A stretch of 64,000 nt of DNA from Candidatus Melainabacteria bacterium 17Bon1m. GTDB lineage: Bacteria; Cyanobacteriota; Vampirovibrionia; Obscuribacterales; Obscuribacteraceae. The notes beneath the pieces were generated by a model. The model did no database searches. It was not told where the DNA came from and was given only the letters and a program-made list of their open reading frames with translations. A program made the translations under genes and the position numbers. The stretch spans positions 224,001 through 288,000 of the forward strand of contig JAVLKG010000001.1 of the NCBI GenBank assembly GCA_032128875.1. Direction: 5' to 3'. Of the stretch, positions 44,299 to 47,868 are shown piece after piece (within the stretch, counting starts at the first letter, position 1; each line of letters starts with the position of its first letter).

Positions 44299-44733
44299 CT
44301 ATTCCTCTCGTTGTAGTTGACCGTTCACATGTATCTTGCTTCCGTCTGCATCTGTCGTGAAGCATTGGAAGCTGATGGTATCAATGTGATTTTGGCTTGA
44401 TCCGTAGCCCGTCATAATCAGCAAAGGTTTAAATCTGTTTGACGAAAATGAGGCCACAAAAACGTCCGGCGTTGTCTTATTATTTCTGTCTGCATAAGCT
44501 TCGAGGGTCGCTTCACCTATTGAAACTTCATCAGGAAAGCCCACCAGTGCCCCTCGAACTTTTACGCTTCCGTCTTTCTCTTTTGTGAAACTGAGCCTTT
44601 TGATGGTGACAAAATTCGTTTCTTTGCTGGTGAAGTTACCAGTCCACTTCTCTGGATAATTAGCTGCAAGCCCTAAGGACGGAGTTCCCAATGATATTGC
44701 TGCAATTGCAGCAGAAATGAATGCCCCTTTCAT
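44299..44733 (-). CDS. Hypothetical secreted protein
   Basis: GGAGGGG RBS; signal peptide. Confidence 0.6.
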   Translation of the reverse strand: MKGAFISAAIAAISLGTPSLGLAANYPEKWTGNFTSKETNFVTIKRLSFTKEKDGSVKVRGALVGFPDEVSIGEATLEAYADRNNKTTPDVFVASFSSNRFKPLLIMTGYGSSQNHIDTISFQCFTTDADGSKIHVNGQLQREE

Positions 44734-44837
44734 ATCCCCTCCAGAGGTTGTCGTCGCCTAATCATACTATTTGGTAAGTATTAAGGGGTATTGCATCCGC
44801 AAATCGAACTTCACTTTGCGAAGGAATTTAAAAAAGA

Positions 44838-45070
44838 CTATCTGTCTTTTGAAAGTGAGATTCTGATTCGCAGGTCTAGAGCACTTGCGGTTCTTACAAG
44901 CATCGGAAGTGAGTGTCCTTCATAGTCAGAATCCTCTAGTCGACTTATCACTGACTGGGTCGTACCTGTCAGGTCTGCAAGTCCTTTCTGACTTAATCCT
45001 GCTTCTTTTCGCGCCTCGTAAATCATCACTGCTATTTCAGAACTGAGGCGCTCATTTGATTTAGTGGTTG
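44838..45070 (-). pseudogene. 5'-truncated XRE/HigA-like HTH gene
   Basis: ERLSSEIAVMIYEARKEAGLSQKGLADLTGTTQSVISRLEDSDYEGHSL; the frame continues upstream of GTG 45029 to a stop, without an RBS. Confidence 0.5.
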
Positions 45071-45143
45071 TTTAGGTCTAGCAATGAGAGGTGGTCGGCC
45101 AGCCTTTCTGGTTGCCTGCAAACATTCGAGAGAGGTCGTGAAA

Positions 45144-45228
45144 TGGCGGAGATGGCATGGACTCGAACCTGCAACGCTTTCGCGCGCCTGTTTTCAAGAC
45201 AGGCTCCTTTCCAATTCGGATCATCTCC
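45144..45228 (-). tRNA. tRNA-Ser(TGA)
   Basis: CCTGT-CT TGA AA-ACAGG arm, long variable arm, encoded CCA. Confidence 0.85.
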
Positions 45229-45233
45229 GTAAT

Positions 45234-45306
45234 TGCCAACGACTGGAATCGAACCAGTTTCGTGCCGTCTTCAGCGGCTCGTGTTGACCACAATCACCAC
45301 ATTGGC
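45234..45306 (-). tRNA. tRNA-Phe(GAA)
   Basis: Acceptor GCCAATG/CGTTGGC, loop CT GAA GA, TTCGATT; no CCA. Confidence 0.75.
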
Positions 45307-45307
45307 A

Positions 45308-45381
45308 TGGCGCGTCGACCTCGATTCGAACGAGGACCAGCAACTTTGGAGGTTGCGCGGCTACCGTTACCTCATCGACGC
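45308..45381 (-). tRNA. tRNA-Trp(CCA)
   Basis: GCAAC-CT CCA AA-GTTGC; TTCGAAT; CCA end. Confidence 0.85.
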
Positions 45382-45382
45382 A

Positions 45383-45458
45383 TGGAGCACACGAGCCGAT
45401 TTGCACGGCTGCGTAGCGGGGTTGCAATCCGCCGGCTTGCTGTCTTGCCTACGTGTGC
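45383..45458 (-). tRNA. tRNA-Cys(GCA), atypical T-loop
   Basis: Loop TT GCA AC; U73 + CCA; T-loop TGCAAAT. Confidence 0.75.
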
Positions 45459-45459
45459 A

Positions 45460-45535
45460 TGGAGCCGTCAGCAGGAATTGAACCCGCAACCAATCGCTTA
45501 CAAGGCGATTGCTCTACCAATTGAGCTATAACGGC
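45460..45535 (-). tRNA. tRNA-Thr(TGT)
   Basis: ATCGC-CT TGT AA-GCGAT; canonical D-arm; CCA end. Confidence 0.9.
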
Positions 45536-45588
45536 GTGTGTTGAACGTCAGATTGTTGAAACCTCGTGAGTTGGTTAGATAAAACAAT

Positions 45589-45660
45589 TGGAGGCAGTAG
45601 GAATCGAACCTACCTGGAGCTGGTTAAAAGCCAGATACATAGCCAATCTGCCATGCCTCC
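45589..45660 (-). tRNA. tRNA-Lys(TTT)
   Basis: Acceptor GGAGGCA/TGCCTCC; loop CT TTT AA; TTCGATT; no CCA. Confidence 0.8.
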
Positions 45661-45683
45661 GCAAAAGTTTCTGAAAAAAAATT

Positions 45684-45778
45684 GGGCGTGTGCAACACGC
45701 CCCCACGCTCTGGAAGAGCCGGCTGGAAGCCAGCGCTCCGGCCGATTTAGAAGCGGGCGAGCCGCCGGCGCTCCCAGG
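45684..45778. repeat. REP-like palindromes inside the tRNA array
   Basis: GGGCGTGTGCAACACGCCCCCACGCT; GGCGAGCCGCCGGCGCTCCCAG (reverse complement of a copy near 31911). Confidence 0.65.
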
Positions 45779-45783
45779 AAAAA

Positions 45784-45856
45784 AGCCCCTGCCAGGATTT
45801 GAACCTGGACCCTTCTGGTTCGTAGCCAGATGCTCAATCCGTTGAGCTACAGGGAC
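45784..45856 (-). tRNA. tRNA-Arg(ACG)
   Basis: TCTGG-CT ACG AA-CCAGA; TTCAAAT; no CCA. Confidence 0.85.
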
Positions 45857-45917
45857 AATGCCGGACCTAAAGGCTCAGCTTTGGTCCGGGTTTCTCGGCG
45901 GCCGCCGTAGAAATGAT

Positions 45918-45988
45918 AGCCCACCATCGGATTCGAACCGATATCTCCGCCGTGGCGCGACGGGGTTCTGCCATTGAACCAGGTAGGC
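45918..45988 (-). tRNA. tRNA-Gly(GCC), atypical (C33)
   Basis: CCGTC-GC GCC AC-GGCGG; U73; TTCGAAT. Confidence 0.7.
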
Positions 45989-45991
45989 GAA

Positions 45992-46062
45992 TTGCCACAG
46001 CAGGAGTCGCACCTACACCACTCGCTTATCAGGCGAGCGCTCTACTGTTGAGCTATGCAGCA
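45992..46062 (-). tRNA. tRNA-Ile(GAT), atypical T- and D-loops
   Basis: CTCGC-CT GAT AA-GCGAG; T-loop TGCGACT; D-loop lacks GG. Confidence 0.7.
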
Positions 46063-46066
46063 CTAA

Positions 46067-46138
46067 TGCCCGATGAAGGATTTGAACCTTCAACCCTCTC
46101 CTTGTAATGGAGTAGCTCTACCGTTGAGCTAACCGGGC
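46067..46138 (-). tRNA. tRNA-Val(TAC)
   Basis: Acceptor GCCCGGT/ATCGGGC; loop AT TAC AA; TTCAAAT. Confidence 0.8.
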
Positions 46139-46141
46139 GAA

Positions 46142-46214
46142 TGGAGACTATCGGAATCGAACCGATGACCTTCTCGTTGCAGGCGAGTTGCTCTGCCGTC
46201 TGAGCTTAGTCCCC
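46142..46214 (-). tRNA. tRNA-Ala(TGC), atypical (C33)
   Basis: G3:U70 identity pair (GGGGACT/AGTCTCC); loop CC TGC AA. Confidence 0.8.
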
Positions 46215-46521
46215 ATGTTTTCTCGATTTTCAGGGTGCGATGTTTCCGAAGTGAACAGATGAAAGTGCGAAGTGTTCAAAATGAGTATGGGTGAGTTCAA
46301 AAGTTATGCGACTAAATTTTTTCTGACACCTCCCTGCGCTAGAGCGAGCTAGGACAATGGCACCACTAATGGTGACACTGCAGATTAAGAAGCGAATTTA
46401 TTCACACGACGTTGATCGGTCAGCAAAGCTGCGATTGCGCGCTAACGCAAATCAATCAGCAAATGCTTGATCGAAGAATGTCTAGTTATCGGGATTCCCG
46501 TGAATAGAGAGCCTTAAAGAC

Positions 46522-46548
46522 AAAAATGCCTGGGCTCTTTACCCAGGC
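46522..46548 (-). terminator. Intrinsic terminator (attenuator) upstream of the tRNA array
   Basis: GCCTGGG-TAAAGAG-CCCAGGC-ATTTTT on the minus strand. Confidence 0.75.
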
Positions 46549-46574
46549 TCTGCGGAGTTAGATACCAATCAATC

Positions 46575-46691
46575 TCATCGCATTACTGGGATTTTCACGC
46601 GCACGTTTGCCGTGCCGCCGCAAAACACTGGACGTCCGGAGTCGGCGCGCCATGTGCGTTTGGTGGTTGAGCAAATAATTGATTTATTCAT
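46575..46691 (-). CDS. 38-aa leader peptide MNKSIICSTTKRTWRADSGRPVFCGGTANVRVKIPVMR
   Basis: TAAGGTG RBS 6 nt before ATG; lies between the promoter and the terminator; too short for the ORF track. Confidence 0.65.
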   Translation of the reverse strand: MNKSIICSTTKRTWRADSGRPVFCGGTANVRVKIPVMR

Positions 46692-46759
46692 AGTCTGCAC
46701 CTTAGTGTCCTTTATGATCATTAGTGATCATAAAGTCGGCCCGAAGACCGACTAAATTC

Positions 46760-46788
46760 AACATACCACAACACCCCTGACGCCGCAA
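46760..46788 (-). promoter_or_regulatory. Sigma70-type promoter of the leader/tRNA array
   Basis: TTGCGG-17 nt-TATGTT with extended TG; a cUUCGg hairpin follows immediately (46734-46753). Confidence 0.65.
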
Positions 46789-46791
46789 GAA

Positions 46792-47868
46792 CTATTTTTG
46801 TTTCGTTCTTTCTAATAATGCGTTGTAGTCATCTTGCCACTCAGGCTTCTGAGTGTTTTGCTGTTTCGCTCGCTTATCTACCGCAATATTGTAGATTTTC
46901 AACGCTTCCACATCATCGCGTTTCAGTTCACAAAAGCGCGCCATGGTAATGAACATTCGCTCGCTCTCGTTTGTGCGTTTCAACAATTCGTTTTTGATTG
47001 CGTTAAACGCATCGTATTTCCTTTGTTTTAAAAGGGCGTAAGCCAGCGCAATTTGAACGTCAGTCAATCCGGCATTTTCGTCCGTTAGTTCTTTGATGTG
47101 TGCACTCGATTTTTGCGCATAATCTTCCGCCAGCGAATAGTGCTTAGAACTGTTTGCAATGAGAGCCAATCTGTAGAGCCCAAGCGCAGCACGCACATCA
47201 CCTACGGGCATTTGTTGTGCTTCGCTCGCCAGCTTGTCTAGCGACTTTCCGAATTCTTCTAATGTGTCAACGCTTACATTGGAAGATGGATCTGCTTCGG
47301 GATTTTCTTCGTTAAGAGAGGTGAGCGGATCGCCATACTTCAGTTGCTCGCCATCCGCGATTGACTTGAATTCATCAAGTTGTTTCAGCGCCGCATCGAC
47401 GCCGTCACAGTGTTTCTTGAGCTGCGCAGTGTAATCTTTTGGCACCGTGTTGTTTATAAGCGATTCAATAATCGCTTTGGTATCAGTACTCGTTCCACCT
47501 GCGGTGGCATTTTGATTCTCAATTTCCTTCTCGAAAAATTGCTTGAGCATTTGCGGGCTTCTCGCGTACAATTCCGCGGAGTTTTTCGCGTAGTTCGGAT
47601 CCATAATCAATTCGAGTTGCATTCTGATCAACATCTCTCGAATGATTCGCGCACTCTCATCCGGATGTCCCGCCTTCAACTGCGCAAGAGCATTTTGAGC
47701 TTGCATGGCAGGTGTTGCCGGCACAGATAATGTTGGTCCAGGCGTCGTTTGTTCCGGTGTCGTTTGTTCAGGTGTCGCCGGCTCAGCCGCTGTCGCAATC
47801 GATAAAGCAAACGAGCAATAGAGCAATCCGCAAATCAGAGCCGTCAGTGTGCGTTGTTTGAACCGCAT
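46792..47868 (-). CDS. Secreted helical/TPR-like hypothetical protein
   Basis: GGAG RBS; signal peptide; TPEQT x2 linker. Confidence 0.65.
   Translation of the reverse strand: MRFKQRTLTALICGLLYCSFALSIATAAEPATPEQTTPEQTTPGPTLSVPATPAMQAQNALAQLKAGHPDESARIIREMLIRMQLELIMDPNYAKNSAELYARSPQMLKQFFEKEIENQNATAGGTSTDTKAIIESLINNTVPKDYTAQLKKHCDGVDAALKQLDEFKSIADGEQLKYGDPLTSLNEENPEADPSSNVSVDTLEEFGKSLDKLASEAQQMPVGDVRAALGLYRLALIANSSKHYSLAEDYAQKSSAHIKELTDENAGLTDVQIALAYALLKQRKYDAFNAIKNELLKRTNESERMFITMARFCELKRDDVEALKIYNIAVDKRAKQQNTQKPEWQDDYNALLERTKQK

Follow-up and report, generated by a model that had tools for sequence, protein, structure and literature searches.

The locus described here raises the question of how a bacterium keeps a long array of supernumerary transfer RNA (tRNA) genes under control, and for the silencing of such 'cryptic' arrays only one answer, repression by TrcR in Anabaena, has been described so far. 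The array lies in a stretch of 64,000 nucleotides (nt), here called the window, from Candidatus Melainabacteria bacterium 17Bon1m (assembly GCA_032128875.1, contig JAVLKG010000001.1, positions 224,001-288,000); positions given below are window positions unless a contig or locus is named, and the array and its leader are read on the minus strand. In this study, we compared this leader with its counterparts in relatives of the source genome, which is referred to as G000 (7.55 Mb in 35 contigs, about 49% G+C), with other G-numbers denoting the genomes of relatives. On the basis of this comparison, the array, which is an L-type array of supernumerary tRNA genes, is probably gated in the Obscuribacteraceae by a ribosome-mediated (leader-peptide) transcription attenuator. 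What is said of function rests on in silico evidence throughout.

An earlier note on this DNA had described, in minus-strand order, a promoter, a UUCG hairpin, an 11-base-pair (bp) palindrome, a ribosome-binding site, an open reading frame (ORF) of 38 codons, a terminator and 11 tRNA genes, and all of these were found where it had placed them or close by (Table 1). Transcription is expected to start near 46753, so that the transcript would probably begin directly with the UUCG hairpin, presumably a stabilizer. The central proposal of the earlier note, that the end of the ORF (CCCAG..TGCG, 46590-46579) pairs with the strand carrying the 5' arm of the terminator (CGCA..CTGGG, 46554-46542), describes a real alternative structure. 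This antiterminator has a folding energy of -15.4 kcal/mol alone, compared with -14.8 kcal/mol for the terminator, and it holds the last four codons of the ORF together with the stop codon. In a scan of the locus, five terminator-like sites were found, as compared to 2.5 +/- 1.6 in shuffled sequences.

Within the genus, an alignment of 12 genomes shows the TG and TAnnnT of the -10 element, the 5' hairpin, the ATG and the terminator to be invariant or almost so, and the ORF encodes 36-38 amino acids in all 12, always closed by TGA, with every in-frame insertion or deletion being a multiple of three. In a larger set of 17 aligned leaders, the TG, the TA and the last T of the -10 element are unchanged in every sequence, and so, as judged by RNAalifold, is the stem of the terminator. 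The same program draws the 5' hairpin as a helix of seven pairs, one of which is changed on both sides; the commonest pair is present in 12-16 of the 17 sequences at six positions and in 8 at the seventh.

In a DNA search of 41 relatives, both the array and the leader, as separate matches, were found in genomes of the same genus. To the family as a whole we applied a covariance model, R1, built from 14 sequences with the antiterminator supplied as its structure. R1 matches 30 of the 104 Obscuribacteraceae genomes searched, in 11 genera and exactly once per genome. Twenty-nine of these matches were analysed, G119 being left out as a terminator-only match, and 28 of them have both the ORF and a tRNA array on the same strand 112-465 nt after the element; the remaining one, the weak match in G070, has neither the leader ORF nor a downstream array. 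Small ORF, antiterminator, terminator and array thus accompany one another in 28 genomes from 9 genera, so that at least nine genera of this uncultured family of non-photosynthetic cyanobacterial relatives share the candidate device. In each of the 28, the ORF starts with ATG, runs for 33-43 codons and ends with TGA, and this stop codon ends 20-25 nt inside the element, within the 5' strand of the antiterminator. An extended -10 site also precedes the ORF in all 28, under a rule that accepted either a sigma-70 match of at least 9 out of 12 or TGn with a -10 of at least 4 out of 6 including A2 and T6. Flanking protein genes, on the other hand, are kept only in the closest relatives, and the small XRE-family gene just downstream of the array is kept in none; as the flanks differ while the leader stays with the array, the leader belongs to the array.

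This linkage bears on the idea that the terminator is merely a constitutively leaky insulator between the upstream gene and the array, with the antiterminator as a by-product of a GC-rich palindromic arm. Hairpins of this kind are common: a scan for the exact terminator pattern with one genome per species gave 67 loci, 53 of which lie in unrelated bacteria without downstream tRNAs. The other 14 have tRNA arrays downstream, and 13 of these come from records titled Candidatus Obscuribacter, Obscuribacterales, Obscuribacteraceae, Melainabacteria or 'Cyanobacteria bacterium'. Outside the family, R1 found two marginal matches (24 bits, E about 0.009) among 150 sampled genomes of the phylum. However, a mere insulator would not be expected to stay with the array while the upstream genes vary, nor to have a conserved promoter of its own. 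It would also leave unaccounted for the stability of the antiterminator, which 5'-strand shuffles rarely reach, as described below. We regard simple insulation as very improbable.

The antiterminator was folded locally and without any alignment in each genome, over the stretch that begins shortly before CCCAGG and runs through the 5' arm of the terminator. At least five of the seven bases of this arm pair with the ORF end in 28 of 28 genomes, and in 25 of them, when the 5' strand is shuffled 200 times, an equally stable fold arises no more than 6 times. Across the family, the energies range from -14.5 to -23.5 kcal/mol for the antiterminators and from -13.1 to -15.5 kcal/mol for the terminators, and the middle helix of the antiterminator is spelled differently from genus to genus. 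The proposed register is also clearly preferred in alignments. In two fixed-register MAFFT alignments, A2 and A3, 88.8% and 90.3% of the cells are paired, against 22-48% and 26-51% when the register is slid, and in the model-fitted alignment A4 of the 30 matches the corresponding values are 90.5% and 25-51%. In A4, which is fitted to the model, 14 of the 17 pairs change on both sides, a count reached by none of 500 shuffles. The check for covariation in related genomes that the earlier note had suggested therefore shows an antiterminator kept by compensatory changes, and its interpretation of the locus as an attenuator gains comparative support from these changes, from the position of the TGA and from the linkage to arrays.

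The leader ORF is conserved in a manner that is unusual for a protein. Its median ratio of nonsynonymous to synonymous substitution rates (dN/dS) is 0.52 (the genus and its two nearest genera; 89 of 91 pairs), which is a far looser constraint than that of a typical protein, and between genera the peptides are almost wholly different. They share a cysteine in 28 of 28 genomes, a tryptophan in 25 of 28, and a proline codon that belongs to the conserved CCCAGG motif. The reading frame relative to this motif varies by genus (CCA-G, CCC-AGG or CCC-GGG), indicating that the motif is constrained as RNA and not as protein. The sequence before the ATG is mostly GGAG-like across the family genomes, as read by eye and not counted. 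Moreover, TGA closes all 28 leaders but only 508 of the 2116 long ORFs of G000.

These data have to be weighed against a quite different explanation, in which the small ORF and the terminator constitute a self-contained gene for a small protein or small RNA, and the array is transcribed from a non-canonical promoter of its own in the spacer, e.g., at or before a conserved 16-nt motif that lies just ahead of the first tRNA gene. There is some peptide conservation within the genus, with several residues kept and the dN/dS value of 0.52 given above, and the terminator is strong and nearly invariant. However, the peptide diverges between genera while the architecture and the position of the TGA stay fixed, and an antiterminator that overlaps the stop codon and is kept by compensatory changes would be useless at a plain gene end. 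Searches for relatives of the peptide were also negative: it has no match in Pfam at E <= 1, and a word-index search with a 48-amino-acid in-frame form found no homologue among proteins of 26-84 amino acids, which is a weak negative because small ORFs are rarely called.

The spacer between terminator and array was therefore of particular interest, as the earlier note had named a promoter downstream of the terminator as an observation that would speak against its proposal. The spacers are 121-474 nt long (about 310 nt in G000), and by the rule given above a promoter-like site is present in only 2 of the 28, G000 not being one of them; likewise, the 12-genome genus alignment has no conserved -35/-10 pair in the spacer. 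What the spacer does have is two conserved blocks. The first, at 46452-46474 and about 45-75 nt after the terminator, appears by eye to fold into a hairpin with pairing-preserving changes in its stem, which were not counted. The second is the 16-nt motif mentioned above. In G000, its only other close copy (C1:953813-953828, at about 1014-1029 of locus L040) lies about 32 nt before the gene for transfer-messenger RNA (tmRNA). With no more than one mismatch it is found in 47 of the 104 family genomes, whereas the reversed motif gave 3 matches in total. Among eight sampled loci (seven from other genera and a one-mismatch copy on contig C4 of G000), five have a tmRNA gene downstream and one a tRNA array, and the other two, including the C4 copy, have nothing downstream at the Rfam gathering score. 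A close variant is also present in the leader of 16S ribosomal RNA (rRNA) (locus L072, about 1413-1432), with a TTGACA-17-TATGAT promoter about 55 nt upstream of it and the 16S gene about 70 nt downstream. As this variant is downstream of a perfect promoter, the motif is transcribed there and is not a promoter. We therefore rejected the 16-nt motif as the promoter of the array, and together with the scarcity of promoter-like sites in the spacers this makes the small-gene explanation unlikely, even if unusual promoters can escape consensus scans.

The 16-nt motif instead appears to be a boxA-like leader element of stable-RNA operons, and may be a Nus-factor site. As in the boxA/Nus antitermination system of rRNA operons (PMC5725501), a short conserved leader motif follows a small hairpin in stable-RNA operons. 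In contrast to that system, the motif is found here before tmRNA and a tRNA array as well as, in its variant form, in the 16S leader, and as a candidate NusB/NusE site it only partly matches the consensus GYTCTTTAANA, which the same source gives for gamma-proteobacteria. If the boxA-like reading is right, the polymerase must come from upstream, which fits read-through from the leader promoter. It may be added that the motif may mark a shared boxA-like control of stable RNAs in translation rescue. To our knowledge, boxA has not been described before tmRNA or tRNA arrays, with the proviso that no search was aimed at this point.

How, then, might the attenuator work? Transcription would begin at the extended -10 promoter, and the 5' leader would encode the ORF, whose last codons and UGA form part of the 5' strand of the antiterminator, the 3' strand of which includes the 5' arm of the terminator. 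Because this 3' strand is synthesized before the 3' arm of the terminator, the antiterminator may form first. A ribosome that reaches the UGA in step with the polymerase would cover 46590-46579 and about 12 nt more; with the antiterminator strand covered, the terminator would form, and a transcript of about 235 nt would end near 46518. If the ribosome is absent, slow or stalled within about codons 1-29, the antiterminator would form first, and the polymerase would read through, pass the boxA-like element and transcribe the array. The array would thus be switched on by poor translation. As no anti-antiterminator was found, a complete absence of translation should turn the array on as well, unlike in trp. 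By analogy with RF2-dependent leaders, the universal UGA may prolong the stay of the ribosome at the stop codon.

Several observations weigh against this scheme and have to be set beside the evidence in its favour. The constrained folding of the two states that the earlier note had called for agreed with it in one half: when a ribosome is placed on the stop codon, 7 of 7 terminator pairs are present in the fold of the G000 leader. The other half failed, since at equilibrium the full leader gives the terminator under every other imposed ribosome position too. The switch must consequently act kinetically, by co-transcriptional folding, and neither a pause site nor an anti-antiterminator has been established. 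Of 29 loci folded globally with 170 nt of upstream sequence, only 17 have the arm paired with the ORF end in the minimum free energy (MFE) structure, while with another 5' limit such pairing was obtained in 15 of 17. Changes on both sides of a pair are thin in the fixed-register alignments, being present in 1 of 10 pairs in A2 and 2 of 17 in A3, and the strong covariation counts come from A4, an alignment that leans towards the model. The promoter scans register consensus matches only, and a separate scan missed even the leader promoter, so that a non-canonical promoter in the spacer is possible. Finally, four public runs labelled RNA-Seq, which contain 0.98 of the sequence words of the locus (44500-47300), yield no transcript starts or ends. 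In these runs, the contigs at the locus are 7.9-19 kb long, the longest records reach 72-156 kb, and the depth is flat at about 14-22; contigs of up to 137-156 kb at a flat depth indicate that the 'RNA' runs behave like genomic DNA.

It is also conceivable that the switch is real but is set by a trans-acting factor, such as a protein, an uncharged tRNA or a small molecule, with the ORF being secondary. In favour of this are the conserved inner hairpin and loop of the antiterminator, whose role ribosome-mediated attenuation leaves unexplained, and the existence of T-box leaders that sense tRNA in other bacteria. However, no Rfam covariance model, the T-box included, matches between 46216 and 46800 at E <= 1. 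Furthermore, if the ORF were secondary, there would be little reason for an ATG-initiated frame to end inside the 5' strand of the antiterminator in 28 of 28 genomes despite its shifts relative to CCCAGG, and to do so with TGA in every case. Control by a trans-acting factor is therefore quite unlikely in our view, and the ribosome translating the leader ORF is the more plausible effector.

If the ribosome is the effector, the codons that it has to read become relevant. In G000, 25 of the 37 leader codons can be read by anticodons of the array under strict wobble rules, as compared to 32.7% of the codons in the 2116 long ORFs; the binomial probability of 1.5e-5 is post hoc, as it was the match itself that prompted the test. 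For 13 other genomes, each considered with its own array and with the codon usage of G000 as background, the readable fraction is at or above background in all 13, and it is higher in frame than in both other frames, again in all 13. A nominal p < 0.02 was obtained in seven (G011, G007, G015, G018, G071, G078 and G075) and no significance in six (G017, G115, G116, G050, G051 and G074), in a sample where the genomes are related, some array genes are miscalled by ARAGORN and large arrays leave little contrast. This in-frame enrichment of leader codons read by array tRNAs is suggestive. A tentative extension, which we hold to be possible but doubtful, is that the leader acts as a sensor of tRNA supply. 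Its codons, including the rare Trp and Cys, would sample the tRNAs of the array, and depletion or damage of these, e.g., by anticodon nucleases, would stall the ribosome and call up replacement tRNAs, with the boxA-like motif tying the array to tmRNA and rRNA as one translation-rescue programme.

The proposed device shares its logic with the leader-peptide attenuators of amino-acid operons (PMC1183508). Such operons include trp, his, leu, thr and ilv. As in those leaders, a short ORF is combined with an intrinsic terminator and an antiterminator that exclude each other, the position of the ribosome would decide between them, and reaching the stop codon would favour termination. In contrast to those operons, which encode biosynthetic enzymes, the proposed target here is a set of tRNAs, no run of identical regulatory codons was found, and the stop codon, always UGA, lies inside the antiterminator strand. 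Moreover, no clear 1:2 anti-antiterminator was found, so that absent translation would give read-through here and not super-attenuation. A second group of relatives comprises the inhibitor-induced, ribosome-mediated attenuators of bmrCD in B. subtilis (PMC4191407) and of mef/mel (PMC4335068). In these systems, ribosomes that generally slow down on a leader ORF allow an intrinsic terminator to be overcome in response to translation stress, as is proposed here, but the genes controlled are resistance transporters or methylases instead of a tRNA array. Another difference is that no antibiotic-specific arrest motif is evident in our leaders, whose peptide is unconserved between genera.

The closest system in terms of the target is the trn operon of Anabaena sp. 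PCC 7120, which is likewise a long supernumerary tRNA array (L-array) in the same phylum. This operon is normally silent, and translation inhibitors induce it (PMC8421152); its control lies in direct repeats over the -10 box and the start site (PMC8421152) that are bound by the ribbon-helix-helix repressor TrcR (PMC10272220); the earlier note was correct on both TrcR and the induction of the array by translational stress. Whereas the Anabaena operon is governed by a repressor, a leader attenuator is proposed here, and the words 'leader', 'terminator' and 'attenuat' are absent from the main text of PMC8421152. The published 20-nt TrcR repeat pattern fits neither TGT of our promoter as read by eye, the sole resemblance being a single half-site match of 7 out of 8. 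A 14-nt motif taken from the promoter is not over-represented in G000, with 30 matches at up to two mismatches as compared to 52 for the reversed control, and a TrcR-like regulon was rejected for this reason.

In the full-text literature covered, which omits most subscription journals, no description of attenuation of tRNA genes was found, and tRNA genes are not mentioned in PMC2965389. The locus is best explained as a known mechanism, leader-peptide attenuation, applied to a new kind of target, namely tRNA genes. Leader-peptide attenuation is the textbook way of matching amino-acid synthesis to demand, and here it apparently governs the supply of tRNA itself. If this is true, the performance of the ribosome would feed back on the expression of tRNA genes directly and without a protein, and there would be a second, independent way to silence cryptic tRNA arrays and to wake them by translational stress. 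The locus also hints at a possible translation-rescue regulon in which the tRNA array, tmRNA and rRNA share a leader motif.

Table 1. Features of the candidate attenuator, the tRNA array and their surroundings (window positions).
Feature	Position	Strand	Basis and details
Upstream gene, 377 amino acids	stop at 46792	-	leader region begins after it
Promoter	46760..46788	-	sequence; weak -35 at 46788-46783, 17-nt spacer, extended -10 TGn+TATGTT at 46768-46760
5' terminal hairpin with UUCG loop	46734..46753	-	sequence; RNAalifold on 17 sequences
Perfect 11-bp palindrome	46710..46735	-	4-nt loop, two GATC sites; between 5' hairpin and ribosome-binding site
Ribosome-binding site and leader ORF	46575..46703	-	sequence, translation; AAGGTG at 46703-46698, 7 nt before ATG (spacer 46697-46692), ATG at 46691, 38 codons, TGA at 46577-46575
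Antiterminator hairpin	46542..46590	-	folding; outer helix 46590-46586/46546-42, middle helix 46582-79/46554-51, plus inner helix
Intrinsic terminator	46516..46548	-	terminator scan, folding; stem 46548-46542/46534-46528, T-rich tract 46526-46516
Second conserved hairpin-like block in spacer	46452..46474	-	alignment of 12 genus genomes, present in all 12
boxA-like 16-nt motif (putative)	46223..46238	-	8 nt before first tRNA (Rfam start 46214) or 7 nt (ARAGORN start 46215)
Array of 11 tRNA genes	45144..46215	-	ARAGORN and Rfam
Multi-copy genomic repeat between tRNA-Arg and tRNA-Lys	45669..45783	-	DNA search; terminator-like hairpin 45702-45684
XRE-family helix-turn-helix (HTH) ORF, 63 amino acids	44838-45029	-	Pfam HTH_3, E 3.5e-8; directly downstream of array

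Two of the features in Table 1 do not seem to belong to the device. The 11-bp palindrome, which the earlier note had counted among its parts, is carried by only two of the 12 genus genomes, G000 and G011, and is thus a lineage-specific insertion outside the conserved device. For the same reason we do not regard it as a core stem or an operator of the device; in the G000/G011 lineage it may be a site for a protein or, as a hairpin, tune translation initiation. The XRE-family gene was considered as a dedicated regulator and rejected, because tblastn gave no match at 42 loci, the nearest relative G011 included. These loci comprised the 29 R1 matches with about 1.5 kb on each side and 13 arrays with 4-8 kb.

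The array itself reads, in order, Ala-like (UGC, with C33; called Cys), Val(UAC), Ile(GAU), Gly(GCC), Arg(ACG), Lys(UUU), Thr(UGU), Cys(GCA), Trp(CCA), Phe(GAA) and Ser(UGA). ARAGORN lists ten of these genes, while Rfam adds a Ser-like gene with a long arm at 45147-45228 and misses Trp; with relaxed settings, ARAGORN places Ser(tga) at 45144-45228. The genes are distinct from the housekeeping copies elsewhere in G000, as none has a non-self BLAST match above 80% identity. In five other genera the arrays contain 16-22 tRNAs, a length in keeping with the L-arrays of PMC8421152, and in two they are shorter within the stretch examined. The first gene (46141-46215), which is called Cys(gca), probably encodes tRNA-Ala(UGC) with C for U at position 33, since its orthologues are called Ala(tgc) in six members of the genus and its sole non-self BLAST match is a tRNA-Ala. 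This tRNA may be decaying or shifting its anticodon. Copies of the repeat between tRNA-Arg and tRNA-Lys occur on many contigs of G000 and of related genomes, and assemblies break at it.

Paralogous leaders before the other arrays of G000 were looked for and rejected, as BLAST gave no match there and R1 matches G000 only once. Those arrays are found on contig C3 (about 1007950-1010321), with genes for Asp, Gly, Cys, Tyr, Gln, Ser and Met, and on contig C4 (286272-286804), with genes for Asp, His, Tyr, Leu and Gln. Together with the array in the window, they resemble a split L-array.

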